A stretch of 64,000 nt of DNA from Candidatus Altimarinota bacterium (GTDB lineage Bacteria; Patescibacteriota; Gracilibacteria; BD1-5; UBA6164), in NCBI GenBank assembly GCA_035905775.1, contig JAMIGJ010000044.1, positions 2 to 64,001 on the forward strand, read 5' to 3'. Position 1 is the stretch's first letter. Every line of letters begins with the position of its first letter. The notes under the pieces are model-generated. The model had not been told where the DNA came from, did no database searches, and saw only the letters and a program-made list of their open reading frames with translations. Position numbers and translations under genes: made by a program. Of the stretch, positions 5,872 to 50,891 are shown piece after piece.

Positions 5872-5983
5872 AGAGATTTTCAGTACTTCTTGTATCCATC
5901 TTTGTTTTCTTTGTATTTCATATTTCTTGAAAAATGAAAAAAACTCTCTTTACTTCTGCATATATTTTCATACTATAAAACGT

Positions 5984-17109: not shown

Positions 17110-17183
17110 TGGCTGGGATGGAGGGGATCGAACCCCCGATGCCGGATTCAGAGTCCGGAGCCTTACCACTTGGCGACATCCCA
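17110..17183 (-). tRNA. tRNA-Gln (anticodon CUG)
   Basis: Cloverleaf with acceptor TGGGATG/CATCCCA, anticodon loop CTCTGAA, T-loop GGTTCGATCC and an encoded CCA. Confidence 0.9.
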
Positions 17184-17236
17184 AAAAATAAACTCTCACT
17201 TGAATTCTCTTCCGTGAGAAGGGCAAGATGCTAGCA

Positions 17237-17284
17237 TGTAGCTTCTTGCTCCTTTCTTCAAGAGGAAAGATTCAGGAAAGAGTT
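17237..17284 (+). repeat. PE-1 palindromic element copy
   Basis: TGTAGCTTCTTGCTCCTTTCTTCAAGAGGAAAG followed by ATTCAGGAAAGAG. Lies between tRNA-Gln and the rplL stop. Confidence 0.65.
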
Positions 17285-17291
17285 ATTCAAA

Positions 17292-17669
17292 CTACTTGAT
17301 TTCAACAGTTGCTCCAGCTTCTTCAAGTTTTGCCTTGATTTCTTCAGCTTCAGCTCGGTCAATACCTTCTTTTACAGCACCTCCTGCATCTACAAGAGCT
17401 TTTGCTTCACCAAGTCCAAGTCCAAGAAGTTCTTTTACTACCTTGATAACAGCAATTTTTTGTCCTCCTGCATTAGCAAGGATAACGTTTACTTTCGATG
17501 GTCCTTCATCTTCAGCAGCAGCTCCACCACCAGCAGCAACCATTACAGGAGCAGCAGCAGAAACTCCAAATTCTTCTTCCATAGCGTGTACGAGGTCGTT
17601 GAGTTCAACGATAGTAAGCTCTTTTACAAGCTCCATAATCTTAGCAGCGTTTTTTGATAATTCAGCCAT
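17292..17669 (-). CDS. rplL: 50S ribosomal protein L7/L12
   Basis: [19 protein letters not shown]..., an Ala/Gly hinge, and C-terminal domain [19 protein letters not shown]. No TGA. Confidence 0.95.
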
Positions 17670-17804
17670 TTTTGCAGAAATTATAAAAATAAAAATATAT
17701 TTCATCAAAGAAATTTTTTCCAATATCCCAAAACATTGGGATGTATCTCCACGAAATAGGGGATACTGAATACATCTCTTCTATGCTAGCTTTTGAGGCT
17801 AGTC

Positions 17805-17887
17805 AGGATTCTAAAAATGCTGTAGAGAACGAATGTATTCGTTCAGGTATGAATATTTTCATACCCTACAGACCATTTTTAGAACCT
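17805..17887. repeat. nested palindrome (three-way junction) in the rplJ-rplL spacer
   Basis: Outer stem AGGATTCTAAAAATG/CATTTTTAGAACCT, then CTGTAG/CTACAG, enclosing hairpins AGAACGAA/TTCGTTC and GGTATGAA/TTCATACC. Confidence 0.6.
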
Positions 17888-17902
17888 TAGACTAAACACA
17901 AA

Positions 17903-18556
17903 TTACTCAGCTTTTGCTTCTTCTGTTGCAGGAGTTTCAGTAGGTACTTCTTCAGACTTTGCTTCAGTTGGAGCTTCTTCTGTTTTCGCTTCAGGAGCTG
18001 CATCTTCAACTTTTGCTTCTTTCTTTGCTTCGAGTTTTCCAACTACATCTTTTCCTTGAGTTTCAAGGTCTTTCGCAGCAGCATCAAACCAGCGAGCCAA
18101 TCCAGCAAGAGGAGCTTGCATAGATCCAACGAGTCGTCCAAGAAGGGTTTCTCGGCTTGGCATACCAGCAATTGCTTTGGTTGCTGCTTCATCCTGAAGT
18201 TCTCCTTCAAAGATAGAAACCGTCCAATTTACTTTTTCACCTTTCGTTTTTGTAACGACTTCATTTACTTTTGCAAGTCCTGCAATCGCATCATCGTTCG
18301 AACATACCATTCCAATTTGTCCTGGAAGGGTTTTGAGATCAATATCGATATTGAGCACATTTTTAATCGCTTTCACGATAATCGTCTTTTTTGCAACCGT
18401 ATAGTTCGCGTTTACAGATCGAAGACTTTTTCTCATTGCTTCAAATTCACTTACAGAAAGTGCGTTTGTTTTTGCAAAACCTATTGATTTTGCTGCTTTA
18501 ATTTTCGCTTCTAGATCTGCGATAATCTCTGCTTTTTGTTGTTTTGTTACTGCCAT
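17903..18556 (-). CDS. rplJ: 50S ribosomal protein L10 with acidic C-terminal extension
   Basis: L10 N-terminus MAVTKQQKAEIIADLE. Upstream of rplL. 217 aa with an E/A/K/T/P-rich tail. No TGA. Confidence 0.9.
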   Translation of the reverse strand: MAVTKQQKAEIIADLEAKIKAAKSIGFAKTNALSVSEFEAMRKSLRSVNANYTVAKKTIIVKAIKNVLNIDIDLKTLPGQIGMVCSNDDAIAGLAKVNEVVTKTKGEKVNWTVSIFEGELQDEAATKAIAGMPSRETLLGRLVGSMQAPLAGLARWFDAAAKDLETQGKDVVGKLEAKKEAKVEDAAPEAKTEEAPTEAKSEEVPTETPATEEAKAE

Positions 18557-18822
18557 AATATTGGTTTAAGCAAGTAGGGTATAATATGTAAGCATATATA
18601 AAAAATCTCTTTGCGAGAGCAAAGAGAAAGTTTTTGGTATTTTAAAAATACATTCAAAAAATCGACTCTTTTGTCTCGATAGGTCTTACGTGACTTTGCC
18701 TATGGTCTTCAACAAAATATATGTTTACGGAGAGTATTATAGTGATATTTTTATGCAGTCAAGTTTTTTGCGAGAGAAATATATTTTTCATTATCTTTGC
18801 TTGATATTTTTCAAAAAAATGT

Positions 18823-18850
18823 TTGACAATTCTCGCAAAACCTATAGCAT
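18823..18850 (+). promoter_or_regulatory. sigma70-like promoter of the ncRNA gene
   Basis: TTGACA at 18823-18828, a 16-nt spacer, then TAGCAT at 18845-18850. Confidence 0.4.
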
Positions 18851-18856
18851 ACTAGG

Positions 18857-19198
18857 TATCCTCTCGGTAAAACAGCGAGTTGGACACGAGTAGCTCCCAT
18901 GGGTGGGGGCTAAAGATAAACGCGCAGAAGCGCAAAGGAGTAAAGTTATGTTCTGTCAAACAGGGAACCAAAATCCAGCCCCATTTATGGGGCAGAATCA
19001 ACAGGAACCCGAAAACGGGTCGGATGTCGAGCAGCCTCGAATGCAACTGAAACCTCAACGTGATGTTGAGTGTGAATGTTGCGGCTTTCCCAAGTCAATG
19101 CACATGGGGCCTTGCGGAGTTAATAGCAGATAACTGTCTATAACTCCATGAAATCGACCCGCGCAAGTTTACAGGCCTGCGCGGGTCATTCTTTTTTT
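18857..19198 (+). ncRNA. rnpB: structured ncRNA, candidate RNase P RNA
   Basis: Locally GC-rich with its own promoter and terminator. Blocks resemble RNase P: GGAGTAAAGTTATG (P4 5' strand), CAGGGAACC, ATGCAACTGAAAC, GTGAATGTTGCGG, CCAAGTCAATG, and GCAGATAACT that can pair with AGTTAT. Confidence 0.45.
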
Positions 19199-19212
19199 AA
19201 ATATTCTACTAC

Positions 19213-19247
19213 AAAAAAATCTCATACATATATGTATGAGATTTTTT
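19213..19247. terminator. bidirectional terminator (rpmE)
   Basis: AAAAAAATCTCATACATATATGTATGAGATTTTTT, a perfect hairpin flanked by A and T runs. Confidence 0.7.
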
Positions 19248-19263
19248 AAAGGTGTTTCAAAAA

Positions 19264-19527
19264 TTATTTTTTTGCGTTTTGCATTTCTTCCATCTTTTTC
19301 TGACGTGCGTAAAATTTGTCCACTGCACCAGTCTTGAGGATTCTCTTTTCTCCTGTATAGTGAGGATGAGACTGAGATGATACTTCGATAAATACACTTG
19401 GATACTCTACTCCTTCGTAGGTGTAGGTTCCGGTTGTCTTAATCGTAGAGTTTACGATCAGTACGTACCCGATAGCTTGCTCCACAAAAGCAACTTTTCG
19501 GCTCACTGGGTGAATTCCTTCTTTCAT
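19264..19527 (-). CDS. rpmE: 50S ribosomal protein L31, type B (no CxxC zinc ribbon)
   Basis: MKEGIHP...SSQSHPHYTG. The zinc-binding cysteine pairs are absent. Confidence 0.9.
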   Translation of the reverse strand: MKEGIHPVSRKVAFVEQAIGYVLIVNSTIKTTGTYTYEGVEYPSVFIEVSSQSHPHYTGEKRILKTGAVDKFYARQKKMEEMQNAKK

Positions 19528-19614
19528 AGTTTCTTTTTTTACTTGCCCGCTTGATACGGTGCAAAAATATAAATATTTGGAAAAATAACAGATTAACTGT
19601 TAGCGGGATATATA

Positions 19615-19698
19615 TGGTGCCCAGGAGAAGACTCGAACTTCCACACCATACGGCACTGGTTTCTAAGACCAGCGTGTCTACCATTCCACCACCTGGGC
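19615..19698 (-). tRNA. tRNA-Leu (anticodon UAG)
   Basis: Acceptor GCCCAGG, anticodon loop CTTAGAA, long variable arm, T-loop GTTCGAGTC, encoded CCA. Confidence 0.9.
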
Positions 19699-19713
19699 AT
19701 TGCATAAAAAATC

Positions 19714-19798
19714 TGGTGGGCAGAGAGGGATTCGAACCCCCGAAAGCGAAGCTAAGGGATTTACAGTCCCCCCCATTTGGCCACTCTGGAATCTGCCC
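19714..19798 (-). tRNA. tRNA-Tyr (anticodon GUA)
   Basis: Acceptor GGGCAGA, anticodon loop CTGTAAA, long variable arm, T-loop GGTTCGAATCC, encoded CCA. Confidence 0.9.
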
Positions 19799-19876
19799 AA
19801 ATAAAAAACCTCACCCGAACTCTTTTTATGGAGAGACCCAAAGGATTTTTTGGATGAGGAGTTTCAAAAATTTCAA

Positions 19877-19952
19877 TGGAGCCACTTGTCGGATTTGAAC
19901 CGACGACCCTTCGCTTACAAGGCGAGCGCTCTACCAGCTGAGCTAAAGTGGC
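19877..19952 (-). tRNA. tRNA-Thr (anticodon UGU)
   Basis: GCCACTTTAGCTCAGCTGGTAGAGC, anticodon loop CTTGTAA, T-loop GGTTCAAATCC, encoded CCA. Confidence 0.9.
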
Positions 19953-25492: not shown

Positions 25493-26140
25493 CTACACTT
25501 CTATATTTTTTTTCCCAAAGGTACATTCCTCACGCATCGGACATACTCCACACTTTGGATTTCTTGCAGTACAGTGATAGCGACCGAAAAGTACGAGCGT
25601 ATTATGTAGGGGAGCGAGATCAGTAGCATCAAATATGGATGCTGCTTTTTTATCGGTCTCGAGGGGAGTTGTTGTCTTAACGATACCGATACGATTGAGG
25701 ACTCGGTGAACGTGCGTATCAACTCAGAGGTAGGGAGCTTTTTCTGTCACTGAGAGAAATACTTTTGCCGTTTTTATCCCCACTCCAGGAAGTTTTACGA
25801 GCTCCTCAATCGTTTTTGGAGGCTTACTGGCATGTTTTTCTATGAGTATCTCACAGGTTTTAAAGATATTTTTGGCTTTATTGTTAAAAAAACTCACTGA
25901 GTTGATGAAATCAGTTATTTCCTCAATTCAGAGCTTGACTCCATCTTCAGGAGTCTGTAAAAAACGAAAAAAGTTTCGATTGATAATATTTACCTGCTTA
26001 TCGGTTGCCTGAGCAGACATGAGGATCGCAATCAGGAGCTGAAACTCATTTTCATGATAGAGCTCCGTTTCAGCATTGGGAAACATTTCAAAGGCCGTTT
26101 TTTTCAGTGCTTCGATTTTTTGTTTTATTTTTGGAGTCAT
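25493..26140 (-). CDS. nth: endonuclease III
   Basis: HhH-GPD motif LVKLPGVGIKTA, VDTHVHRV, and the Fe-S motif CTARNPKCGVCPMREEC. 2 in-frame TGA, TAG stop. Confidence 0.9.
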
Positions 26141-26205: not shown

Positions 26206-26256
26206 CTATTCCTATCTTAATTCTTTCCTTTTTGATAAAAGGAAAGAGGCTACAAA
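26206..26256 (-). repeat. PE-1 palindromic element copy
   Basis: The minus strand reads TGTAGCCTCTTTCCTTTT-ATCA-AAAAGGAAAGA followed by ATTAAGATAGGAATAG. Confidence 0.65.
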
Positions 26257-26258
26257 AT

Positions 26259-27059
26259 ATGTACACGCAAGATTTTTACATCACTAGGCCAGTGTGAAAT
26301 AATGCTTTTTCCTATCATGAAAGAAAAAATAAAAAGCTTTTTGTTCCTACAATCAAAAAGATAGAGAGTTTTGATGATATAAAGCTTTTGAATCTCAATA
26401 CAAAAAATATCACTTTTGAAGATTTTGATTTTGATGGAAAACTCCAGACCTGCTTTGGACTCAAGAATTTGTATGAACTCAGTTTCTCGTCACTACAGCC
26501 CTCATCACAATTCTTCTCCTGCCAGGAGAGAGAGCAAATACAAAAATCTATACCGATATATATTGTAGATAACCACAATCATGTGTTTTATTTTTGGTAT
26601 TTGGCTCGTGAGCGGGGAATCATCTCAGACGGAGCTCTCCTCTATCATGTTGATGAGCATGCAGATATGCGAGACCCCCAAGAGTATCTCATGAAGCCCG
26701 ATTCACAGGATTTAGAAAAGGTTTTTGAATATACCAATTTTTTCCTCAATGTTGGAAATTTTATCATTCCTGCAATGAAAGAATGACTGATTGGAGAAGT
26801 AGTACAAATTCGCAGTGAAGGGGCACTCAATGCATATCTAGAGTCCGGACTCCAAAGAGTCCGGACTCGGTGAGAGTCAATTATTCTCAACCTCGACCTT
26901 GATTTTTTTGAACCAGAACTCGACTACATCGAATTCGAACTCAAAAAGCAGGTGATACTCGATATCGCAGCTAAAGCAGACCTTATCACGATTTGCACGA
27001 GTCCATTTTTTATAGAACAGGAGAGAGCAATCAGAGTTTTGAAAGAAATATTCCAATAA
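26259..27059 (+). CDS. hypothetical protein, UPF0489-like (DNHNH motif)
   Basis: IYIVDNHNHVFYFW...HVDEHADM. ATG 26259 is joined through 3 TGA. Contains the twin palindrome at 26841-26868. Confidence 0.55.
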
Positions 27060-27777: not shown

Positions 27778-28782
27778 CTAAAAATACCACGCTATAAAGC
27801 TTGAAATCTGGGGATGAAAAAAGAGAACACAGAGATATCCACTTGCGATAAATGGTCCAAATGGAACTTGAGTTTCAAGACCGGTTTCACGGGTTTTTTT
27901 GAGACGAGCTTGTATGAGAATAATTATCCCAAGAATACTTCCGATAATATAACACAGCATCCAAGCAGGGAATGCAAAACTTACTCCAACAAGCAGTCCC
28001 ATAAGTATCGCGATTCTTAGATCTCAGGCCCCCATCCAGCGTCATCCAGAAACGATGATTTGTAAAAAAAATGAGATATATACCCCAAGTGCCGCAAGAG
28101 TTCCAGAAAGCAGAGCAGAATCTCGATAAGATACGTCAAAAAAATACATATACACTCATAAACCGATACATACCCCTGCTACGATGAGACAATCGTATAT
28201 TTCTTTGAGACCCGCAAGAAAGACAAAATATAAGGCTCATAGGACTCACATACATACGAGAAAAGTCACAATATCAAAATTTCACACAGGGAAATAGGGA
28301 TAAATAACAATTCAAAAACCTTGAAGGATTAAAGCTCCAAATGCTCCAATATTTGCAATAAGTAAAACACTTTCAGGAATTTCTAAAAAGAGAATATCGT
28401 AAAAACTATAGACCACGGTGAGAAATACGATACTCAGAAAAAACAGAAGTCTTGAGATTTCTCTAATATCTCACGAAAATATAAGCGCAGGATCAATCAT
28501 GAAATATCACACAGCAGCAAAAAGTGCCCCAGTCGCAAGCTCTAAAGCAGGATAAATAGGAGAAATTCTTGTTCTACAAGACTGACACTTTCCTCATTGA
28601 AACAGCCATGAAAATAAGGGAATCAGTTCTGATGCTCAGAGTGTATGTTGGCACTTCGGACAGTGACTTCGTCCCGTCATAATCCCACCTTCTCCGCTTT
28701 TGAGTCGATACACCAGTACCGATGCAAAACTTCCAAAGAGTGTTCCTAAAATGAAGAGAGAAGTGTAAAAAAAGAGGTTCAT
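27778..28782 (-). CDS. pilD: type IV prepilin peptidase (A24)
   Basis: Motifs CPKCQ...CQSC, GAGDLRI and VPFGPF, with multiple TM helices. 13 in-frame TGA; every triplet checked for TAA/TAG. Confidence 0.85.
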
Positions 28783-28837: not shown

Positions 28838-28996
28838 CTACATTTTCGGAGTTTTTTGTCTGCGACATCTCTCGCTACAATACAGTACTTGCTCAAAATT
28901 GTTCTTCCATTTTTTACGTATCGTAAAAGGCTTCTGGCACACTTTGCAGAGCTTTGCTTCTTTGAGTTTTCATCTATCGAGCAGTTTCATAATCAT
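28838..28996 (-). CDS. DUF2256-like small zinc-binding protein
   Basis: [30 protein letters not shown]. Its start overlaps the photolyase 3' end by about 20 nt. TAG stop. Confidence 0.65.
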
Positions 28997-30374
28997 CTGA
29001 TTTGTAGAGTTCTCGAGCCTTGTGCGTCTCGATGCGATGGTCAACTATTGTGGGACAATACGAAAGAGGAATTTCGAGAGGATTATGGATTGCTTTTACA
29101 CTTTCAAACTCGAGCTGCGGGATATATTTTTTGATAAACGTTGCTTGTGTATCAAATTTTTCACTTTGCAGCATCGGACTAAAGACTCGAAGGGGTTTTG
29201 GATCAGCTCCCACACTTGCTGACCATTGCCAGTTTCCGAGGTTTACTGCCTCGTCATAATCGAGCAGTTTTTCTGCAAAGTATCGTTCTCCGAGTCTCCA
29301 GTCGATATGCATATCTTTGGTGAGAAAACTTGCAACCACCATACGAGCCCGTCCATGCATCCAATTTGTTTCGTTGAGCTGTCGCATCGCAGCATCTACG
29401 ATAGGATATCCAGTTTCTCCACAGCACCATTTTTGAAACATCTCTTCATCTTGAGACCACTCAATATGCCTTCGTTTTTCCTGAAATTCTTCGTTTTTTG
29501 TGTTCGGAAAATAATAGAGAATGTGCCACCAAAACTCTCTCCATGCCATTTCTGAAATAAAATGCTCTGCTCCACGAGTCCTATCAGCTCCATCATGTCC
29601 ACTTTGTGTGGCATCCAGTTCTCGAAAACTTTCAAGAGCTTGTTTATAAATCTGTCTCACCGAAAAAACTCCAAATCTGAGATAGGGAGAAAGTCGGGAT
29701 GTCCCATCTTTATCGAGATCATTTCTCACATCACTGTAATTTCGTAAAATATGTTTTTCAAAACGCTCTTTTCCAAAATCCATTGTAAAATAAGAATGTT
29801 TTTCATGAGCTATGAAATCTCAAGCTTGTGTGTGATCTTCACTGTCGAGTTGAGAAAAATACTCAAGTTTTGGAAGTATCTTGAGTGATTCAGGATGAGC
29901 TCTGAGATATTTTTGCCAGAGTTTATAGTAAGGAGTAAATACCTTTCTTTGCTCGATTTCCTGAGGTTCTACAAGGAGAAAGTCTTTGTGCGATTCAAAC
30001 TTGCATCAAAAAAAATGAATCTTTTCCGCAACGAGTTCATCACGTTTTTTTCCATACGTTCCATAACTCGTATTCGTAAATACACACTCGATACCGTATT
30101 TTTTCACGAGTTCTGGTATGATTTCTTCTGGTTTTCCTTTCAAAACGATCACTTTTTCTCCTCAGATTTTTTTGAGATTTTCTGAAAGAGTATCAAGTGC
30201 TTCTCGGATAAATCAAAACTTGATGTCAGAGAGTCCTCAAAATTTCTCAAGCAAATGCTCATCAAGGATAAATATCGGGAGAATATTTTCTGAGTTTTGT
30301 ACAGCTTCAAAGAGTCAGGTGTTATCATCGAGACGCAAGTCTTGCCTGAACCAGAATATAGATTTTTTATACAT
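28974..30374 (-). CDS. phr: deoxyribodipyrimidine (CPD) photolyase, class I-like
   Basis: Motifs IFWFRQDLRLDDN, SRLSPYLRFG, WREFWWH and GYPIVDAAMRQL...WMHGRARM...NWQWSAS. 466 aa, 7 in-frame TGA, TAG stop. Confidence 0.9.
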
Positions 30375-30699
30375 AATTTTGCGTGAGTTTACGAATATAT
30401 TTTTTTTCTCATTGTGCAATTTTCTCTCCATCTTGAAAGAGGATTGCTTGTAGTGTATCAGAATCAACTCGGATGAGGGTGCATTTCCACTGCTTTGCGA
30501 TACAGACTTTTTCCCACAGATTTTCGAGATTTACGCGGTCCTTATGAGTGATTTCAAGATATTTGTTTTTCAGAGCCCGTTCGTATTTTGCTTCTTCGTA
30601 GCTATAGAGATGATGAGGAGTTCCACGGGATCCGATTTTTGCTCCCGATTTTTTTCCACGTCGCAGCTTATCGATATGTTCGAGTTTTATTTTTGTCAT
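30367..30699 (-). CDS. hypothetical protein (110 aa)
   Basis: ORF 30409-30699 extends through one TGA to TAA 30367-30369, overlapping the photolyase start by 8 nt. Confidence 0.55.
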
Positions 30700-30701
30700 A
30701 C

Positions 30702-30983
30702 CTATTGCTCATCTAAATAAAGAGTCACCTCAACCATATCTCCAGCTCATTTGTGAATATATTTTCGTATCTCCTCATTAATAGAAAGAAGTTTATCCTG
30801 TCCGTTTATAGAAAAAAGATTTTTTGATCGAATTTCATAGCTGTCGATGTATCAAGAAACTTTCGTATATCCCCAGCGAACGTAGAGTTCTTGAGTATTT
30901 GGGATTTGAATATGATAGGTCCATGCTCATTTTCATGGAGCATAGATGAGTTCCAAATATGTATTTTTTATGAGATAGTTCAT
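30702..30983 (-). CDS. DUF1905-like protein
   Basis: Found only in code 25 (6 TGA). GKGAWTYHIQIP...GYIDSYEI...GAGDMVEVTLYLD. Its start overlaps the upstream gene's end. Confidence 0.65.
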
Positions 30984-31156
30984 AATCTTTTTTCTTTTGA
31001 TTTCCAAGTACCACCGTAGACATAATATACTCATTTTTTCAGAGAAAGACAACATTTTCCGCAGACAAATATCCAATTTTTTCCTTTTTCTTTTTGTATT
31101 CGATAGGCTTGATGGAGGTCTGCTTTTCCACAGTGTTCACAGATTTTTGGAGTCAT
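30968..31156 (-). CDS. small zinc-ribbon protein (62 aa)
   Basis: CEHCGK...CGKCC. ATG lies 5 nt after the upstream stop. 2 in-frame TGA. Confidence 0.5.
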
Positions 31157-31161
31157 AGAGT

Positions 31162-32682
31162 TTAAAAAAGAGATATTTGGAGTGTTACGGAAGTCTTCTT
31201 CGGTATTTTTTTGCGTCCACGGAACACTCGGCTTCCGTGTTTTTTATATATTTTTTCTTTGAGTTCTTTTGGGAGAACTCATTTGGTTTCCCAGAGGATT
31301 TTTCGAGCCTGTCTATTTGCTTCTTCTATATCTATGATTGCTTGAGGATACTCCAAGCTTTCAAAATGTTCCCATTTCCATGGTTCATGGAGACACTCTT
31401 TGGGAACTTTTTGGAGTTCGGGAATATATTTTCGAATGAGTTTCCCATCGGGATCTTTTTCACGACCATTGAGGACAGGATTATAAATACGTATGGTATT
31501 AATTCCACTGGTCCCTGCCTGCATCTGGAGCTGACTGTAGTGAATTCCAGGTTCATAATCGAGAAAGAGCTTCGCAAGTCTCCCTCAGATAGTCTGCCAA
31601 GGTTGCATACAGGTATTACACAAAAAACTCGTCAGAATGGCTCGACTCCGAAAATTGCACCAACCAGTAGCTTGCAGCTGACGAATCGTTGCATCAATGT
31701 AGGGGATGCCTGATGTTCCTGTAAATACTCTTTCGACGAGTCCTTCATCTGCTTGGCTGCGTATCATATCAAAGGCAGGATTAAGGTTTTTCCACTCGAT
31801 GCTGGGCTCATCCTCGAGTTTTTGGATAAAGTGCGATTGCCAATGCAGTCGTGCGAGAAAAAAATCAAGTTGTTTGATGAACCCTTTTCCACTTTCTCAG
31901 GGGAGAGTTTTGAGTTCTTGGATGCGTTTTTGGGTTTCCTGATAGATATATTTGACCGAGAGACAGCCAAACGCGATATAGGGAGAAAGTCGTGAACAGG
32001 AGTCTTGGGACTCAAAAGGTTTTGAAATATGATAGCTATAGTTTTTTGCTCGATTCCATAGAAAATCATCAAGGACTTTTTTCCCAACATCTTCTCCTCC
32101 TGCTTGAAATCATTTCAGGTCTTGTATTTTTTGTGCAAAACTCCGAAAGGTTTGTTGTGAAAGTATTTCGAACTCTCCAAGCTCCAGAGAGAAGCTACAT
32201 TTTTGAGGTGCAAAAATTTCTTCATGCATCCGAGTATTCCAGATACGCGACCATACATCTCTACTTTTGAGCCTTCTCACGACTCCATTTGTAGGATATT
32301 CTTTGAGTCGAATATGCTGATCTTTACAGAATTCAATTACTTTGAGATCTCTCTGAAACGTTAGAAAGTTCCCAGTTTCCTCATGAGAAAAGATTTTTGT
32401 GATATCATAGTGTTTTTGTAAAAAGGAAAAACCTTCTAGAGCTTCGTAAGGAAGAGTAATGAGAGGGATATTGTATTTTTTGAGATTTTTTTTGAGAACT
32501 GAGAGACTTTCGCAGACAAATTTGAGATGTCTCTCGCTCGAGTCTGGAGCTTCAAGAATGGAGTTTTCAAAAAAATATACCCCAAGCGTTGGGATATCCG
32601 GCTTGAAATTTGCCAAAATCTCGTTATCGTGAATACGAAGATTTTTTTTAAACCAGATTATTTGTATTTTTTCTCGTTTCAT
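31162..32682 (-). CDS. cryptochrome/photolyase-family flavoprotein (second paralog)
   Basis: Motifs IIWFKKNLRIHDN, SRLSPYIAFG, ARLHWQSHFIQKLEDEP, GIPYIDATIRQL and IHYSQLQMQAG. 506 aa, 5 TGA, all triplets checked. Confidence 0.85.
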
Positions 32683-32821
32683 GCACGAAGCTCAAATTAT
32701 ATTATACCACCAGTTGCGAGAGGATTATATATATTCAAAATATACTCATATTATATATATCCATCATACGGGAAAAATCAAGTTTCAGTGAAATAATTTG
32801 AACCTCAATGTTCATAGCAAG

Positions 32822-34150
32822 ATGATTGACTATGCAGGAGGGAAGTATTTTATGAACGAACTTTCAAAAAAAGGTTTCAAGGCAAACTTCTTTTGTAGTA
32901 CCAGCTATCTTTCATGACTCAAAAAATATGCAAAAAAGCATCATATCACAAAATATGTTCTGGTAAAACCACTCGAGGACTATGTGTATAAAAATTTTTT
33001 AAAAATCCAAAAAGAGCTTGAGAAAGCCTCAGTTGAACTCGAATTTCTCCCTGATACTCAGAGTTTTTTCCTGAGTCACGAAGATTTTTTGAAGCAATAC
33101 CAAAAACCTCCCATTCTCGAGTATTTTTATCGCTTTATGCGAAAGAGAGAACATATCTTAGTGGGTGAAAATAATGAGCCTCTTGGAGGAAAATGGAACT
33201 ATGACGAAGAAAATCGCAAATTTGATAAAAGCCATAGTAGATCTTGGAATTTCTCTCTCGAAAAAAATAGCTTTGTGCTGGAGGCAGAAGAATATTATAA
33301 TGGAGCACTATTTCCAAACTTAATCCCTACGAACCGTCCTGAAGCTTTGAAGCTTTTAGAGTATTTTTGTGAGCATCATCTTGCTGATTTTGGGAGACTT
33401 GAAGATGCGATGTATGAGACAGATAATTATGTGCATCATAGCCTGCTTTCCACTGCCATAAATTTTTGATTTCTCTCTCCAAGAGAAGTACTTGAGAGAG
33501 CGCTCTCCCAGGCAAATATTCCTCTTTCGAGTTTAGAGGGATTTGTCAGACAAATTTTAGGGTGGAGAGAATATATGTATCACTTTTTCCAGTTTTATAA
33601 AGACACTATACACACAGAAAATCATTTTTCTCATACTCGAAGTCTGCCATCATACTTTTGGAAGGATGCAGAGATTTGTGAGATGAATTGTCTTTTTCGA
33701 ACCTTGAAACAGGTACAAACCGAGCATTACTCGCACCATATCCAACGACTCATGGTTATCGGAAATTTTGCCTTACTTTCGGGACTTGATCCGCATGAAC
33801 TCAATAGATGGTTTTTTGAGTACTATACCGACGCATTTGAGTGGGTGGTAACTCCCAATGTTCTCTCGATGAGCCAATTTGCAGACGGAGGAAAACTTGC
33901 AACCAAACCCTATATAGCATCAGCCAATTATATCTCTGGGATGTCCGATTATTGCAAAAATTGTTACTATGATGCCAAAGAAAAATACACAGAAAATGCC
34001 TGTCCCCTCAACTATCTCTACTGGGATTTTGTCGCGCAAAATAAAACTGCCTTTGAAAAAAGACAGCCCTTTATCGTAAAAAATCTTGCAAAAATAGATA
34101 TTGAAAAAGTGAGGGAGCAGAAGGAGAGGTTTTTAGGGAAGATAATCTAG
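32822..34150 (+). CDS. FeS-BCP / (6-4) photolyase-like protein (COG3046 type), N-terminus apparently short
   Basis: Motifs EYFYRFMRK, GGKWNYDEENRK, RQILGWREY and the Cys cluster YCKNCYYD...CPLNYLYWDF. Start is uncertain (ATG 32822 or 32852). Confidence 0.75.
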
Positions 34151-34567
34151 ACTTATTTTTCATAATTCAGTCCCAGTACCGTCTGCTACTTGAATATCAG
34201 TAGGAATCATATAGATTATAATTCCATTATCATAAATTGCTCAAGGTATAATACTCGTATCTATTACATCTTTATAAGCTTTTCATATATCATCTCTTCA
34301 AGGAAAAATATTGTCAAATTCAGTTGGCTTCTTTCAAGTGTGTAAAATAATTCTCACATTTTCCCATCGTTTATCTCTCTTTATTTGATTTCGAGCATCA
34401 GCTATTAGTCTATCAAATTCTTTGATTTCTATTCAAGAAGTATTTTTAAATTGTTCAGGTGTCATAAAAATTTCTCAATCTAAAACTGCTTGAACTGCAT
34501 TTCAAGTCTCATCTGGTTTCTGAAATACTCTTCTATCTTTTAAGAATTCTCCTAGAAAAACTTCCAT
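34133..34567 (-). CDS. hypothetical protein (144 aa)
   Basis: Absent from the standard-code track (8 TGA). ATG to TAA verified. Its 3' end overlaps the convergent gene by 18 nt. Confidence 0.5.
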
Positions 34568-34633
34568 AAAACTATTTTATATGATAATAAAAACATTTTA
34601 AAAAATAAAATTATATTGTCAATTAAAAAATAT

Positions 34634-34662
34634 TTGACAGAAAAATACTTATTTTATATAAT
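34634..34662 (+). promoter_or_regulatory. consensus sigma70 promoter
   Basis: TTGACA at 34634-34639, a 17-nt spacer, then TATAAT at 34657-34662. About 70 nt upstream of ATG 34731. Confidence 0.55.
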
Positions 34663-34730
34663 AAGCACGTAAATATATTATGTGCTAATTTAGATATATT
34701 TACAAGATTTTATTTCTTCACTTTTGTATT

Positions 34731-35201
34731 ATGTTTCAAGGAAAAGTATACTCCTACCGTAATATCAACGGTCAGGAAAAAACATTTGAAAAAACATTTG
34801 AGAACTATGATGACTATAAAGCGTTTATAGATTCGGATGAAAATTTTAGACCCTTTGCCCATTTTCCAAGCTTTGGATTTGGAAATTTTGATGCCTTTGA
34901 TCGTTATCTTAATAATTTCTTCACCCAGAGAATTGCTCTCCCATCTCAAAATAATCGCAATCAAGAACTGCTTCCCGTAAGTCTTGAGAAATATGAAGTT
35001 GAGGCACAGCGACTCGAACAAGAAGAACAGCAAAAAGCTCAGAAAAAGACGCTTCTTGAGAAATCTCGCGAGAGGCTTCAAGGCTATCTTGAAAAATTTC
35101 AAACACACAGTAAAAAAGACGAGCGCATCGCTGAGCTCGTTAAAGAAGCCGAAGCAGATATGAAAAAGATTGAAGAGGAACTTGCAAAAATTGCAGGATA
35201 A
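34731..35201 (+). CDS. hypothetical protein (156 aa) with coiled-coil C-terminus
   Basis: Clean ORF with a consensus promoter upstream and a terminator downstream. The antisense ORF in the track is a low-complexity mirror. Confidence 0.65.
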   Translation: MFQGKVYSYRNINGQEKTFEKTFENYDDYKAFIDSDENFRPFAHFPSFGFGNFDAFDRYLNNFFTQRIALPSQNNRNQELLPVSLEKYEVEAQRLEQEEQQKAQKKTLLEKSRERLQGYLEKFQTHSKKDERIAELVKEAEADMKKIEEELAKIAG

Positions 35202-35204
35202 GCA

Positions 35205-35228
35205 AAAGCAGCCATTAGGCTGCTTTTT
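35205..35228 (+). terminator. Rho-independent terminator
   Basis: Stem AAAGCAGCC/GGCTGCTTT with loop ATTA, then T's. Confidence 0.7.
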
Positions 35229-35320
35229 GTTATCTCTTTGATACTTTATTTTCACAAAATCTTTTTTAATTCTTTATATTTGAATTATCATTCGTGATAA
35301 TTATATAAGAATTAAATACT

Positions 35321-35869
35321 ATGCAATCATTACTTTTCTCATTTTATATGGCTACAGAAGCCGAGGTAAAAGAGTTTTTTGATTCACAAATAAAGTGTAA
35401 ATATCAAGGGAGAGTAGAATGAGAGTATAGAAGCGAAATTCCAGCAGGGGAATGTTCAGGAAGATATAATTATTTTGTAAAAAATGATAAAGGATATGTA
35501 TTTCCTTGATGCACATACTTAAGTAATGAGTGTGTTTGAGATGGTATATGTTGAAACTCTAATCTGACAGAAATTTATTGGCCTGAACCTGAAATATGAG
35601 ATTATATATATTGAATTATGAATGATTCATGAAATATATTACGTATTTGAAAACATAATTATGATTCGGATAAAAGTATCCCTGACTGTAAAACTTATTC
35701 TAATATAGCGGATTTTTATTTTCATACATCAGTATCATCAGAGTCTAATGAATATTCAATTTACAGTGTAATTTTCATTTCTTCTGCAATATTTTTTTGC
35801 ATATTTTTTTTATCTTTCATATATAAAAAAATAAAATCCACTAAAAAAATAAGTAAATTTCTAAAATAA
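35321..35869 (+). CDS. Cys-rich protein with C-terminal TM anchor (182 aa)
   Basis: Only visible in code 25 (8 TGA). 7 Cys in the N-terminal two-thirds. C-terminal hydrophobic helix followed by a KK-rich tail. Confidence 0.55.
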
Positions 35870-36976
35870 ACTTAAATTATCTCCAAACTCCATTTCCTCT
35901 ACAAAACTCTCCTCATATCCTCTTACTTTGAGATTTTCAAAGACAGTAAAATCATGTGTTCCCGACTGGATTTGCGCGTAACACACAAGATAAGGGATTT
36001 CAAAACAATTGTAGGACTTCACTTCGGGAGGTCGAACTGAAAGTTCAAGATTATATTTTTTCTGAAAAGATTGTTGTATCATTGCTCGAGGATTTCCCGA
36101 GTTTTTTCCGATGAGAAAAGGGGAGAATGGAGAGTTCTGCGAAAAATACTTCTTATGATTTTCGTGTAAGATACATATGACGTAAGCTTCACGAGTAGGG
36201 AAGGAACTTTTTTTCTTTTCGACTACTGGTTCTAAACTTCCTTGAGTTTGGTAAAATTTTGATTCTTGGAAAGGATATGTTTCCCAGTCAATTCACGAAA
36301 CATTATTGAGAGAAATCGTTGCTCCATAATCCATGAGAGCATTATTGATATCGCGAGATATATTTGTAGCCCCTTTCTCTTTTCAAGGGAGAGGATTCAG
36401 GAGAGAGTTATGAAACTCTCTCATCTGCCCTAGTAACTCCTCTTTCTCCTCTTTCGTCAGCTTTTGAAACTTTGTTCCAAAATAATATCGGGAAAATATT
36501 TTTTCGAGATTGGTATCAAAACTGAGTGTTGGGATATCATAAGCAAAGGCTCGGATAGCTTCAGCCGTATAGGGTCAAACTCAGGGAAGAGTTCGGAGTT
36601 TTTCTGTTTCATGTGGAAAAACTCATCCAAAATCAGTAACTACTTTTTGTGCGGTTTTGAGCATATTACGAGCTCGACTATAGTATCCAAGTCATTTATA
36701 GTAGGGAAAGAAATCTTCATAGCTACACGCTGCGAGGTCTTCCAACGTTGGAAACGCTTTCAAAATAGTTTCAAAATAGAGTTTGACTCGTTCGACTTGT
36801 GTTTGCTGGAGCATCGTTTCTGCAAGCCATACTCGATATCCCAGAGTCTTTTCATCAAAATTATAATCCCTCCAAGGAAGATTTTTTCTTCCATTTTGAA
36901 GATACCATGTTTGTAACTCAGAAAATGGAAATTTTGGAAGCATATTTTGTATATTGCTTGAAAAGATATTTTTCAT
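35861..36976 (-). CDS. mutY: A/G-specific adenine glycosylase MutY lacking the Fe-S cluster cysteines
   Basis: Motifs LPWR, VWLAETMLQQTQV, G(TGA)LGYYSRARN, LPG(TGA)VG(TGA)PYTA and NNALMDYGA. 371 aa in one frame, all triplets checked. Confidence 0.85.
36364..36409 (+). repeat. PE-1 palindromic element copy inside mutY coding sequence
   Basis: TGTAGCCCCTTTCTCTTTTCAAGGGAGAGG followed by ATTCAGGAGAGAG. Read antisense, it encodes NSLLNPLPGKEKGATN. Confidence 0.7.
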
Positions 36977-37016
36977 ATACTATAGGGGTATTATTTTATT
37001 TTTCCAATTTTTCACT

Positions 37017-37445
37017 ATGGAACTTCTCAAACTTTTTTTAACTTTTGGAGTCGGGTATCTCACGATTCTCATTGGGGACTTTTTGTGGCTTGGGCATGGT
37101 GCAAAAAATTTTACGATTCGTGAGTTTGGAGAACTTGTGGTCGTGAAAGACGGATCAATTGATATTAAACTTGGGGTAGGACTTCTCGCGTGGGCAGTGA
37201 TTGTACTTCTTGTGCTCGTATTTGTGACAAAATCAGGATATGCGCACTCTATTTCATCTGCGCTTTTTTGGGGAGCTATGATGGGTTGTCTCAGCTACGC
37301 GATGTATGATCTCACCAATCTCACTTTTTTGAAAAATTATTCTCTTGCTTTTACTCTCGTAGATATTACCTGGGGAACATTCTTGCTTGCGATGGTTTCG
37401 CTTACAATGTATCTCTTTTCACGTTGGATCGAAAAAGTGTTGTAA
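37017..37445 (+). CDS. DUF2177-like membrane protein
   Basis: 142 aa with 4 hydrophobic helices. DFLWLG...YAMYDLTNL...DITWG pattern. Confidence 0.7.
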   Translation: MELLKLFLTFGVGYLTILIGDFLWLGHGAKNFTIREFGELVVVKDGSIDIKLGVGLLAWAVIVLLVLVFVTKSGYAHSISSALFWGAMMGCLSYAMYDLTNLTFLKNYSLAFTLVDITWGTFLLAMVSLTMYLFSRWIEKVL

Positions 37446-37452
37446 TATTTCC

Positions 37453-37480
37453 GTAGAGAACGCAGATCTGCGTTCCCTAC
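37453..37480. repeat. GTAGAGAACG...CGTTCCCTAC hairpin
   Basis: Near-perfect 28-bp palindrome that shares arms with the element at 17821-17870. Confidence 0.55.
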
Positions 37481-37495
37481 ATAATAATTCTGAAT

Positions 37496-38254
37496 ATGAC
37501 CATCCTTCTTATAAGCCTCGCAATTTCCTATATCTTGCTTTTTCTCCTCTCCGTCAAACTCAGAGATAACTCTATCGCAGATATTTTTTGGGGGCTTGGT
37601 TTTATACTTATCGCGTGGGTAACGTATAGCCAAAGTATTGAAACGACCTCTCAAACCATAGTGACCCTTCTCGTAACTGCTTGGGGAGTACGACTTGCAC
37701 TGAATATCGGATCAAAAAAATTTTTGCACACTGGAGAAGATGCTCGCTATGCGAGATGGAGAGCAAGTTGGAAATATTTTTATATCAGAAGCTTTTTACA
37801 AGTTTTTGTATTGCAGGGGATTTTGATGTTTTTTGTGGCAACTCCGATTTGGATTTTAAACTTTGAGAGTGGCTTTCAGGAACATATGATGTTGACGATG
37901 ATGGGATGACTCATAGCACTTTTTGGTCTCATATACGAAACCATTGCAGACTGTGAACTCAGGCAGTTTATCAGAACCAAAGAAGAGGGGCAGATACTTA
38001 CACAGGGCTTACGAAAATTTCACAGGTATCCGCAGTATTTTGGAGAATCAGTGTTTTGGCTCGGGATATCAATTATCGCTGCTCAAATCTCTCTTTGGGC
38101 TTATGCAGGTTGGCTTCTGATTACCTTTCTCCTGCTCTTTGTTTCAGGAGTCCCACTTCTTGAGGCTCGCTACAAAGGGCAGAGAAACTATACGATGTAC
38201 AAGAAAAAAACTCCCGTCTTTTTTCCGGATTATAGAAGACTATGGGAGAGATAA
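37496..38254 (+). CDS. DUF1295 / steroid 5-alpha-reductase-like membrane protein
   Basis: Two track ORFs lie in one frame joined by TGA. GLRKFHRYPQYFGE, with multiple TM helices. Confidence 0.8.
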
Positions 38255-38282
38255 AAAGTTCCTGCATTGCAGGAACTTTTTT
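38255..38282. terminator. bidirectional terminator
   Basis: AAAAGTTCCTGCATTGCAGGAACTTTT sits between convergent genes. Confidence 0.7.
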
Positions 38283-39153
38283 AATAACTCATGGCACCAA
38301 TGACCTTAAGCCCCAGCTGTGCTATCGGCATGAGATTTTCTTTGAGCTTTTGTCGCAGGATCATGAAATCTGCTCGGACGATTGCGAGGAGAAAATGTAT
38401 AGGGAAATTGTTTTCGTACTCACTGTAGGCATGAAATGCTATTGGAAGTACCTTGTAGGTATGTGCGATTTCTTCGGCAATTTGTCCTTCTATATCACTC
38501 ATAATCGCAGGAATCTCTCCAGTCGTGAACTTCTGAGAAACTTTTTTATCGGTTCCATATGAGGCTTGCATCTGTCCGGCATCTGCAAATCTATCTGCTT
38601 TCGCGTAGTGTGCTTTGAGATACTCGAGATAGCTTACGTATTTACAAGCTTCGGTCGTCGTTTCCCGAAGGATATTGAGTTTATTATGAATCGTCTGTGT
38701 ATCGGTGAGCGAACACCCTAGCGTTTCTGCTGTTCGGTCAAGACGTGTGATACGCAGATCGATCTGTCCTCCTACAGTATCATTGAGCTCTCCACTGGCT
38801 TCGCGTTGCAGTTCTTCGAGGAGGAATGTGAGCGAATTTTTTTGTGCTTGGATAAGGGCACATTTATAGATATTTCCTATATTTTTTCGATACAGTGCTT
38901 TTGCAGCATCGAGTGCAGGAGCATGAGAAACGGCATTTTGAAACTGAGAACCAACCCCATCTGCTGATTCATATTCTTCGACACTGTATACTGGTTTTTC
39001 AGATTTATATGTCTCACAGATATTTTTTACTCGACACTCATACATCGAAAAACCATTTTGCGAACCACAAACATCGGACTCTGCTGCATAAGAAGAGCTT
39101 TGCAGTGAAAAAAATACAAAAGCGATACTGGCTACGAGAATGCGAATTTTCAT
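38281..39153 (-). CDS. secreted hypothetical protein (290 aa)
   Basis: Signal peptide MKIRILVASIAFVFFSLQSSSYA. Seven Cys. No in-frame TGA. Looks more GC-rich than its neighbours by eye. Confidence 0.7.
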   Translation of the reverse strand: MKIRILVASIAFVFFSLQSSSYAAESDVCGSQNGFSMYECRVKNICETYKSEKPVYSVEEYESADGVGSQFQNAVSHAPALDAAKALYRKNIGNIYKCALIQAQKNSLTFLLEELQREASGELNDTVGGQIDLRITRLDRTAETLGCSLTDTQTIHNKLNILRETTTEACKYVSYLEYLKAHYAKADRFADAGQMQASYGTDKKVSQKFTTGEIPAIMSDIEGQIAEEIAHTYKVLPIAFHAYSEYENNFPIHFLLAIVRADFMILRQKLKENLMPIAQLGLKVIGAMSY

Positions 39154-49493: not shown

Positions 49494-50891
49494 ATGGATC
49501 TTACCTCTTATGCATCTCTTCCGGAACTTTCATTTCTCTTTCTTTTGGCTTTTGTACTATGAGCTTTTGTAGGGATACAAAAAGATATCCTTGGAAATGA
49601 GAAAACAGGAGCATTTCGTAATAAAAATACCAGTAATGATTTTGCAGGAATTCGTTCTTTTGGACTCATTGCGATTCTTTGAGCCCTCATGCAATTTTCA
49701 GACCAACTTTTAGGAAGTTATTTAGTACTCACAATTATTGGTCTTATTATCATAGCAATATTTGTCTATGTAGATTATGTATTTCATGTATTTCGAAAAG
49801 AGCAGCAATCTCCAGCCTCAGAAATTGCGGTGATACTCGTGTATCTTTTATGAGTTCTCATATTTCTGAATCAAAAGGAGATGGCAATTATCTTTGCTAT
49901 TTTTATCTCGCTTATAATCTCAGCAAAAGATACACTCCATAATCTCATGCAAAAGATATCTCGTGATGAGCTCAATACCACACTGAAATTTGCAGCAATT
50001 GCTTTTGTGATTCTTCCACTTCTTCCAGATGTAAAATATTCTTTTTCAACGCTTTTTCAGTCACTGGGGTTCACAGAAGCTGCTCAAATCCAGCTTCCTA
50101 TTTGGACGATGGAGTTTTTTAATCCTTACTCTACATGGTTTTTCGTAGTAGTGATGTCTGGGATTTCCTATATTGGATATTTTATGACACGAATCTTTGG
50201 AGATAAATCAGGGATTATCGCATCATGTGTGATGGGAGGGATGATATCTTCCACGGCAGTAACAGCGTCTATGTCAGAAGAAAGTAAAAAACATCCTCAT
50301 AACTCTTCTCTCTATACCACAGGTGCTTTGCTGGCTTCTGGAGTGATGTTTCTGAGAGTGATCGCGATTATTGCCTTTACCTACAGTGCACTTTTAGCTG
50401 CAGTATTTATCCCTGCTCTTGCTATGTTTGTCGTTTTTATTGGCTTAACCGGATATTTTTATCTCACTTCAAAAAAACAGGCTTCGCAAGAAGTACATAT
50501 CGAGGAAAAAGTACAAAGTCCATTTCAAATTGCTCCTGCGCTCAAATTTGCAGCCTTTATTCTGATGATTAAGTTTATTGCGGCTCTCGGGATTGCCTAC
50601 AAAGATCTCATTCCACAGGAGATATTTTACTACGGTCTTGCCATCATCTCAGGACTTGCAGATGTAGATGCGATTACTCAGACGATGTCTGCGAATGCAA
50701 AATCTGGAGAGCTTGCAGCTCTCATTGCAGGGACGACTATCCTGATTGCCGTGATGTCCAATAATCTCGTCAAAGGATCTCTCGCGTTTCGTTTTGGAGA
50801 AAAAATGTTTGGACGAAAAGTTCTTCTTACCTTTATTGTTTCGATGATCGCAGGGATTATTGCTTTAGTGTTTCCTGTATTTTTCTCCTAG
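49494..50891 (+). CDS. MgtC/DUF4010-family membrane protein
   Basis: ATG 49494 is joined to the track ORF through 3 TGA. Polytopic, with the LADVDAITQT motif. Confidence 0.7.

Follow-up and report, generated by a model that had tools for sequence, protein, structure and literature searches.

A native, probably photoprotective gene cluster of recoded Gracilibacteria and p110, a small protein family linked to photolyases

A 64,000-nt stretch of a Candidatus Altimarinota bacterium genome (Gracilibacteria; contig JAMIGJ010000044.1 of assembly GCA_035905775.1, here called the window) contains a 9.4-kb island that encodes three proteins of the photolyase-cryptochrome family, phrA, phrB and phrC, together with several small proteins, a MutY-like adenine glycosylase and two membrane proteins (Table 1). 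From our analyses of this island and of related loci, we conclude that it is probably a native photoprotection cluster typical of its lineage, in which two small basic proteins, DUF2256 and a protein that we call p110, would serve the photolyases as nucleic-acid-binding accessory partners. Clusters of several photolyases are already known, and the island as such is ordinary; the new part is p110, an uncharacterised, widespread family linked to photolyases.

The distribution of the island suggests that it is a trait of the lineage. A phrB scan of one genome per GTDB species gave 51 loci, about 30 of which are from metagenome-assembled genomes (MAGs) of Gracilibacteria, Peribacteria or Patescibacteria; most of the others are from Bacteroidota (Aquirufa, Cytophagales, Flavobacteriaceae). 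When all island proteins were searched by tblastn, phrB, phrC and DUF2256 were found linked almost everywhere, the Bacteroidota included, and phrA, p110 and the DUF2177-DUF1295 pair were linked in many Gracilibacteria. Four loci (L003, L005, L008 and L009) are colinear with the window, as are three more (L062, L067 and L068) from an independent metagenome scan. Since this set of genes is met again in dozens of independent genomes, the clustering is not due to chance, and the cluster appears to be a common and vertically inherited trait of Gracilibacteria. A sequence-only reading of this DNA, made earlier and without database searches, had called such an island unexpected in a reduced genome of the candidate phyla radiation (CPR). 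This did not hold, as about 30 species-level MAGs carry it, at phrB identities of 42–60%. The sunlit habitat that the same reading proposed is likely: the record titles of the Gracilibacteria-type loci, those of the closest cluster-bearing relatives among them, name station ALOHA, sea ice, glacier-fed streams and lakes, and it is from the titles of these relatives only that the habitat of the source bacterium is taken to be light-exposed.

p110 is basic, with an isoelectric point (pI) of 9.7, and matched no family in Pfam or NCBIfam. Its 56 close homologues, all unnamed, share a nearly invariant N-terminal segment of 66 residues (LEHIDNLRRGKKSGAKIGSRxVPHHLYxYEExKYxRALKxKYLEIxxKDRVNLxNLWxKVC). 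A profile search of 1.8 billion representative proteins yielded 86 members, including three fusions to FAD_binding_7; apart from this domain in the three fusions, 74 diverse members had no Pfam family in common. The sequence profile found nothing among PDB sequences, and most of what a word-indexed homologue search recovered from the diverse alignment belonged to the same Gracilibacteria subfamily. Homologues are also present in ferns, liverworts, streptophyte algae, brown algae and raphidophytes (P0111, P0130, P0161, P0169 and P0206). These eukaryotic proteins, all annotated as hypothetical, have N-terminal extensions resembling organelle-targeting sequences, and one has an RRM domain; no seed-plant homologue was among the matches.

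The link between p110 and photolyases is seen in gene neighbourhoods and in gene fusions. Within the phrB-centred loci, 17 of the 20 p110 copies lie at most 300 nt from a photolyase-family gene, and in eight loci (L014, L015, L017, L019, L022, L024, L030 and L048) p110 is immediately upstream of a gene encoding a NewPHL-like protein of 376–381 residues. Three proteins (P0094, P0104 and P0118) carry a p110-like domain as an N-terminal fusion to a FAD_binding_7 protein without the usual N-terminal photolyase domain, and residues 86–453 of P0104 align end to end with a 381-residue short photolyase of Gracilibacteria (34% identity, E = 2e-75). This short photolyase has no antenna domain, keeps all residues that serve to repair cyclobutane pyrimidine dimers (CPDs) and has a C-terminal extension ending in SFFxYW, which are the hallmarks of NewPHL/SPL. 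Genes that are separate neighbours in one lineage and fused in another are a classic signature of functional coupling. A 493-residue open reading frame (ORF) of L019, at first sight a further p110–NewPHL fusion, was rejected as a frame artefact of stop-poor ORF calling.

Searches centred on p110 gave a similar picture. Look-ups found photolyase neighbours in L056, L057, L059 and L060. The last of these is a locus with standard-code gene calls that has LysR and HrpA-like helicase genes close by, and here the p110-like gene reaches into the start of a gene for a full-length photolyase. A metagenome scan with the close-homologue alignment of p110 showed photolyase-family and/or DUF2256 neighbours in 11 of the 13 loci above 45% identity. 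In at least ten loci (L001, L056, L057, L060, L061 and L069–L074), p110 and DUF2256 are immediate neighbours, with one or the other coming first.

DUF2256 itself (PF10013, 58 bits against a cut-off of 25; pI 10.2) has a zinc-ribbon pattern formed by Cys17, Cys20, Cys40 and Cys44. Of its 32 occurrences in related loci, 28 have a photolyase-family gene on the same strand at a distance of 300 nt or less, and DUF2256 stands beside photolyase-family genes in both Gracilibacteria and Bacteroidota. The sequence-only reading had treated DUF2256, p110, znr and the DUF1905 protein as one set of four small proteins. They differ in reach: DUF2256 belongs to a core shared across phyla, p110 is widespread, znr is confined to the closest clade and, among the related loci, the DUF1905 protein to this genome. 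znr (pI 9.6, no Pfam match) directly follows phrB only in that clade (L002, L003, L005, L006, L008, L009 and L065), and is found beside p110 in L056. The DUF1905 protein (PF08922, 40.7 bits) gave no tblastn match in any of the 51 + 25 related loci.

SPL/NewPHL proteins are CPD photolyases specific for single-stranded DNA, and SPL–FeS-BCP operons are known (Xu et al. 2021, PMC8476157; Emmerich et al. 2020, PMC7736829). The island resembles these operons in encoding several photolyase-family classes together, with an FeS-BCP beside another family member, and the SPL–FeS-BCP linkage itself is found in related Gracilibacteria and Aquirufa loci. It differs in that the window has no SPL/NewPHL gene, tblastn giving only weak cross-matches on phrA and phrB, and in that phrC is accompanied by a class I enzyme and by a NewCRY-like protein. 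In the main texts of both papers, genomic context is limited to the remark on the SPL–FeS-BCP operon, and neither appears to describe p110 or DUF2256.

When only close homologues were used, a first AlphaFold2 (AF2) model of p110 had a pLDDT of 80 and no fold match. A second model, from the diverse alignment, reached a pLDDT of 92, with the elements in the order helix, long conserved basic loop, helix, strand, helix, three strands, helix. Compared with the PDB, the second model gave a best E of 0.29 and a TM of at most 0.33, the weak and scattered nuclease-like matches not being trusted, and compared with BFVD it had no significant fold neighbour. A CRM/YhbY-like RNA-binding fold, suspected from the element order and a GxxG-like loop, was rejected: hhalign against E. 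coli YhbY gave a probability of 0.1, and YhbY structures were absent from the fold matches.

The genes of the island become legible only in a non-standard code. With the standard table 11 the region is broken into a mosaic of short ORFs; once TGA is taken to be a sense codon, ORFs cover 97% of the window instead of 67%, and the fragments merge into full-length genes. TGA encodes glycine (genetic code 25), as it occurs at invariant glycines and never at tryptophan: it specifies the second glycine of the GxGD motif of the prepilin peptidase (peptidase A24; ‘MGAgD’) and both glycines in the helix-hairpin-helix of the MutY-like protein (‘LPgVgPYTA’), and tryptophan stands opposite TGA at 0 of about 230 aligned residues of non-recoded homologues. 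At the best-conserved site, position 337 of the extended phrC ORF, glycine is the majority residue in the non-recoded homologues. No tRNA-Gly with anticodon UCA was found within the window. Four tRNA genes lie at 17110–19952, for Gln-CTG, Leu-TAG, Tyr-GTA and Thr-TGT. Once TGA was read as glycine, Pfam bore out every domain assignment of the sequence-only reading with a score above the curated cut-off, its class assignments held as well, and all genes that it named were found where it had put them, save for the start of phrC.

By its two-domain architecture (DNA_photolyase 129 bits, FAD_binding_7 225 bits) and its structural relatives, phrA classifies as a class I CPD photolyase. The nearest solved structures are 1owl and 1tez (A. 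nidulans/S. elongatus class I, of the cyanobacterial 8-hydroxydeazaflavin (8-HDF) type) at 280 bits, and E. coli 1dnp follows at 208 bits. In E. coli numbering, phrA keeps E274, W277, M345, N378 and W384, as well as the Trp triad W382/W359/W306, N341 being the exception. phrC (DPRP, PF04244, 81 bits) aligns with the solved FeS-BCPs 8ijy (308 bits), A. tumefaciens PhrB (4dja, 290 bits) and CryB (3zxs, 280 bits), and its four [4Fe-4S]-ligating cysteines (C...CxxC...C) match those of 8ijy column for column, which assigns it to the FeS-BCP/prokaryotic (6-4)-photolyase type. The sequence-only reading had recognised this type correctly and had placed the start of the gene at 32822. The true start is at 32681 (MHEAQIILYHQL...), 47 codons upstream, because the additional N-terminus (MHEAQIILYHQLREDY...) is conserved in all orthologues and aligns with the N-termini of the solved FeS-BCPs.

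phrB scores 55 bits for DNA_photolyase and 174 bits for FAD_binding_7, and about 100 bits to every solved photolyase class, being roughly equidistant from all and close to none. Compared with E. coli Phr (1dnp), it has the replacements E274Q, W277F, W306S, N341F, M345A, N378H, W382L and W384M. Its own motifs, SRLHWQSHFIQKLE (also given as RLHWQSHFIQK), GWxNFRxRA and DYEPGIHYxQxQMQ, are nearly invariant across the 51 loci, with single deviations or a gap in L041, L045–L047, L040/L042/L050 and L006, and they span Gracilibacteria, Bacteroidota, Betaproteobacteria and one Sericytochromatia MAG. As the alternative set is equally conserved, the replacements are not random losses, and the exchange of the active site for a different conserved set points to something other than canonical CPD repair. 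The NewCRY group, represented by VcCry2, has neither E274 nor N341 (PMC7736829). phrB resembles it in its two domains, in the absence of both residues and in that it would receive the annotation of a CPD photolyase; it differs in also lacking W382, W384, N378 and M345 and in having its own invariant motifs. We therefore call it ‘NewCRY’-like, a label that refers to the match with the published group description.

The ATG codons of phrB (32682 to 32680) and phrC (32681 to 32683) overlap by 2 nt in the sequence CATG, and this junction recurs in L003, L005, L006, L009 and L057. Because the start codons overlap head to head, both promoters and any 5′ leaders must lie inside the coding sequence of the partner gene. 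A candidate promoter of phrB consists of the extended −10 element TGGTATAAT followed by a second TATAAT, 14–27 nt upstream of the phrB ATG and within phrC codons 6–10; a two-hexamer promoter scan did not list this −10 element, as it lacks a −35 match. No sigma-factor, anti-sigma, MerR or B12-binding domain was found by Pfam among the genes at 27.1–39.2 kb. The Rfam scan of the island found no element, and the Rfam, repeat and promoter/terminator scans taken together gave no riboswitch, repeat array or above-chance signal other than the hairpin at 38258–38282.

Several observations weigh against reading the locus as a photoprotection cluster in which p110 and DUF2256 assist the photolyases. Loci collected around phrB favour photolyase neighbourhoods, and the p110-centred sets lessen this bias and do not remove it. 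Photolyases are not neighbours of the distant p110 members (P0150 in L053–L055; L075/L076) or of the eukaryotic homologues, so the family may have a more general role, and as the p110 model, although confident, has no structural neighbour, its putative DNA binding is deduced from charge and context only. phrA has glycine instead of N341 at a substrate-contact position (motif WMHGRARM, window 29300–29330). This Gly341 is common to the L002–L009 clade and to L013 and L018, clades without a NewPHL gene; Asn341 is kept in the NewPHL-encoding Gracilibacteria clade (L014, L019, L022 and L030). In addition, the linkage of MutY, DUF2177 and DUF1295 to photolyases holds for a part of the lineage only, and the candidate promoter of phrB is a consensus match made by eye only. 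Two other roles for p110 have to be considered beside that of a partner. It could be a small transcription factor that regulates its own photolyase operon, as it is small and basic, has an extremely conserved N-terminal basic segment and is encoded within the operon of an island otherwise without a regulator. We regard this as improbable because of the covalent N-terminal fusion to NewPHL-type enzymes in three independent proteins. Also, p110 has no helix-turn-helix or other known DNA-binding fold, its position relative to the photolyase classes shifts between lineages while the tight translational coupling stays, and the eukaryotic homologues carry organelle-type extensions and, in one case, an RRM domain. 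Alternatively, p110 could be a cofactor module (antenna, flavin delivery or flavin reduction) for NewPHL-type and related photolyases, making up for their missing or altered N-terminal domain. NewPHL/SPL proteins lack an antenna domain (PMC7736829, PMC8476157), the fused domain occupies the position of the antenna domain of canonical photolyases, and the invariant Gly/Ser/Arg/His loop (G15, G23-S24-R25, H29) is a possible binding site for a ligand with a phosphate group. A Flavin_Reduct gene lies between phrC and p110 in ten Gracilibacteria loci (L014–L017, L019, L022, L024, L025, L030 and L048), and in L052 such a gene directly follows the p110–NewPHL fusion, with a Tag glycosylase, a ferric reductase and a second photolyase nearby. 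This role is nevertheless unlikely, given that p110 has no likeness to a known nucleotide- or flavin-binding fold, that its coupling partner in the window, phrA, is a class I enzyme of full length and so has an N-terminal domain of its own, and that tblastn with the L022 protein detected no Flavin_Reduct homologue in the window.

Besides the role of p110, those of phrB and of the island as a whole could be read differently. phrB may be a true photoreceptor, that is, a bacterial cryptochrome which responds to blue light and governs expression of the repair genes around it, and the island would then be a unit of sensor and effectors; we consider this possible, if rather doubtful. The loss of the CPD-repair residues and of part of the Trp triad, the strong conservation of the alternative motifs, the place of phrB at the front of the operon, head to head with phrC, and the lack of any other regulator gene in the island agree with such a function, and only a signalling role was deemed feasible for NewCRY by Emmerich et al. 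(PMC7736829). However, phrB has no output or DNA-binding domain, its C-terminal extension amounting to about 40 basic residues, and a remodelled, highly conserved active site fits an enzyme with another substrate equally well. A V. cholerae study (PMC5241685) counts VcCry2 among the single-stranded DNA photolyases, and describes a triple photolyase-family knockout built to probe light sensing, with the blue-light response attributed to ChrR and MerR. As to its origin, the island could be a recent transfer, or a mis-binned piece, from a free-living bacterium such as a member of the Bacteroidota or Proteobacteria. The nearest non-CPR relatives of phrB are indeed from Bacteroidota (Aquirufa, Flavobacteriaceae; 36–42% identity), which also have the phrB-phrC-DUF2256 linkage. 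Yet in-frame TGA occurs in every island gene except DUF2177 (0–6 per gene), even at invariant glycines, with 11 per 1000 codons in the island genes compared with 6.5 in a dozen other identified genes of the window. The tetranucleotide correlation of the island (GC content 0.365) with the remaining window is 0.986, inside the range of the other 9.4-kb segments (0.969–0.988), and the approximately 30 other recoded MAGs hold orthologues of graded identity in conserved synteny. We thus rejected horizontal transfer and mis-binning on the tetranucleotide profile and TGA use, and consider a foreign origin very improbable; by composition and TGA use the island is native to the recoded genome. Mis-binning, recognisable by deviating TGA use and tetranucleotide profile, was one case in which the sequence-only reading would have failed, and both match the rest of the window.

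The MutY-like protein has the HhH-GPD core (56 bits, plus HHH in Pfam), and its LAETMLQQTQV and FDTN motifs align with the catalytic residues E37 and D138 of E. coli MutY. It has no cysteine between residues 85 and 267, so that the four-cysteine FeS loop is missing, and its TIGR01084 score of 189 bits is below the NCBIfam cut-off of 286.5. The C-terminal 190 residues had no Pfam match, no NUDIX-like domain for recognition of 8-oxoguanine (8-oxoG) being recognised. The earlier label MutY accordingly stands for the core and the catalytic residues, and falls short for the FeS loop and the family score, for which reason we use ‘MutY-like’. The FeS loop is also lost in the orthologues of L003 and L004; that of L008 retains C189/C196/C199/C205, which suggests that the cluster was lost recently, within the lineage. 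Nth, encoded in the same window, keeps its FeS domain. MutY proteins without the cluster occur in Lactobacillales and Entamoeba, and the protein described here resembles them in keeping the HhH-GPD core with the catalytic Glu and Asp while lacking the 4Fe-4S cysteines. The gene is syntenic in L003 and L004, the closest relatives only, which makes its link to the photolyases weaker.

DUF2177 (PF09945, 70 bits) and DUF1295 (PF06966, 169 bits) form a pair that is directly beside phrC in L013, L057 and L069, and 3.5–5 kb from it in L003, L004 and L010. Both are among the SAK1-dependent genes induced by singlet oxygen in Chlamydomonas (PMC4067076), and both are characteristic neighbours of heliorhodopsin, Patescibacteria included, for which membrane-lipid remodelling has been proposed (bioRxiv 10.1101/2021.02.16.431466). 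The island resembles the SAK1 genes and the heliorhodopsin modules, DUF2177-DUF1295(-DegV), in having the same pair in a light-related context, also within Patescibacteria; it differs from the latter in that the pair is near photolyases and not near a rhodopsin. Neither a rhodopsin nor DegV was seen among the ORFs scanned, the window being only partly annotated. Proteobacterial photolyase regulons responding to light or singlet oxygen (sigmaE-ChrR, MerR/LitR; V. cholerae, PMC5241685) likewise group photolyase-family genes with membrane or lipid genes and with repair of oxidative damage. Unlike these regulons, the island has no sigmaE/ChrR, MerR/LitR or CarH among the genes scanned, and neither cfa nor DUF1365.

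The minus-strand unit runs in the order phrB-znr-DUF1905-p110-phrA-DUF2256, and possibly continues into pilD, which would make seven genes. Its tight, operon-like packing, noted in the sequence-only reading, is borne out: phrB and znr are separated by 5 nt, znr and DUF1905 overlap by 16 nt, DUF1905 and p110 are 2 nt apart, p110 overlaps the start of phrA by 8 nt and the 3′ end of phrA overlaps DUF2256 by 23 nt. phrC is divergent, and the MutY-like gene and the DUF2177-DUF1295 pair are about 3 kb away.

Table 1. Features of the photolyase island and its borders; positions are those of the 64,000-nt window.
Feature	Position	Strand	Product length	Remarks
pilD	27778-28782	-		
DUF2256	28838-28996	-	52 aa	PF10013
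phrA, class I CPD photolyase	28974-30374	-	466 aa	6 in-frame TGA
p110	30367-30699	-	110 aa	
DUF1905 protein	30702-30983	-	93 aa	PF08922
znr, four-cysteine zinc-ribbon protein	30968-31156	-	62 aa	
phrB, cryptochrome/photolyase family	31162-32682	-	506 aa	
CATG palindrome, phrB/phrC start codons	32680-32683			read directly
Candidate phrB extended -10	32696-32709	-		consensus match by eye
phrC, FeS-BCP/prokaryotic (6-4)-photolyase type	32681-34150	+	489 aa	
AT-rich variable stretch	about 34150-35860			
MutY-like adenine glycosylase	35861-36976	-	371 aa	
DUF2177 membrane protein	37017-37445	+	142 aa	PF09945
DUF1295 membrane protein	37496-38254	+	252 aa	PF06966
Likely bidirectional terminator hairpin	38258-38282			inverted repeat and direct reading

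The spacer between phrC and the MutY-like gene (GC content 0.30) is the variable part of the locus. Two ORFs at 34133–34567 (minus strand) and 35321–35869 (plus strand) are probably not genes. Each has 8 in-frame TGA, that is, approximately 50 per 1000 codons or about five times the density elsewhere, and neither has a Pfam family or a homologue in the related loci. The hairpin following DUF1295 (GTTCCTGC-ATT-GCAGGAAC) is GC-rich and flanked by T-runs on both strands; it is likely a bidirectional terminator for the DUF2177-DUF1295 unit and the convergent gene at 38281–39153. A near-perfect palindrome at 37444–37489 fills the gap between DUF2177 and DUF1295. Elsewhere in the window, the companion repair genes recQ (5927–8269), nth (25493–26140, minus strand) and tag (51747–52346), which the sequence-only reading had listed, were confirmed. 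A UPF0489 protein (26232–27059, plus strand) is encoded just upstream of the island, and a DUF4010/MgtC membrane protein at 49494–50891 (plus strand), a family which recurs near phrC in L003, L009 and L010. A pirin gene confirmed by Pfam adjoins an ORF at 10555–11190 that looks nitroreductase-like by eye only (both within 9848–11190, minus strand).

Taken at the level of protein families, the island would combine several lines of defence against light. phrA would use light-excited FADH- to split CPDs in duplex DNA, and phrC, with its [4Fe-4S] cluster, would do likewise for (6-4) photoproducts. phrB, which keeps the fold and has nearly all residues for substrate contact and electron transfer replaced, may have turned to sensing or to another substrate. 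The MutY-like protein would remove adenine opposite 8-oxoguanine, and DUF2177 and DUF1295 may handle photo-oxidised membrane lipid. By comparative genomics, p110 is the free-standing form of the domain that is fused to NewPHL/SPL N-termini elsewhere, and p110 and DUF2256, as translationally coupled basic proteins, may help the photolyases to find or hold damaged, probably single-stranded, DNA. More broadly, and tentatively, p110 and DUF2256 might represent an unrecognised class of photolyase partners: a nucleic-acid-binding subunit or domain, without which NewPHL/SPL and some class I enzymes would not work in vivo on DNA that is damaged and probably single-stranded, and of an age great enough for CPR bacteria, other bacteria and plastid-bearing eukaryotes to have it in common.

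Photolyases have so far been regarded as textbook single-subunit enzymes. A dedicated photolyase partner would be new, if true, and the view of these enzymes as acting alone would need revision. If the partners are real, they would also offer a handle on the poorly understood NewPHL/SPL and NewCRY groups, and a function for an orphan family of algae and non-seed plants. Through its conserved adjacency, translational coupling and gene fusion, p110 is a testable lead, often found beside the equally uncharacterised DUF2256, and the conserved CATG overlap of phrB and phrC is a neat case for studies of promoter architecture in CPR bacteria. The presence of the cluster in a small recoded genome is informative on lifestyle and no anomaly: photoreactivation would be a conserved investment of small-genome, recoded and probably host-dependent Gracilibacteria in sunlit water and ice.

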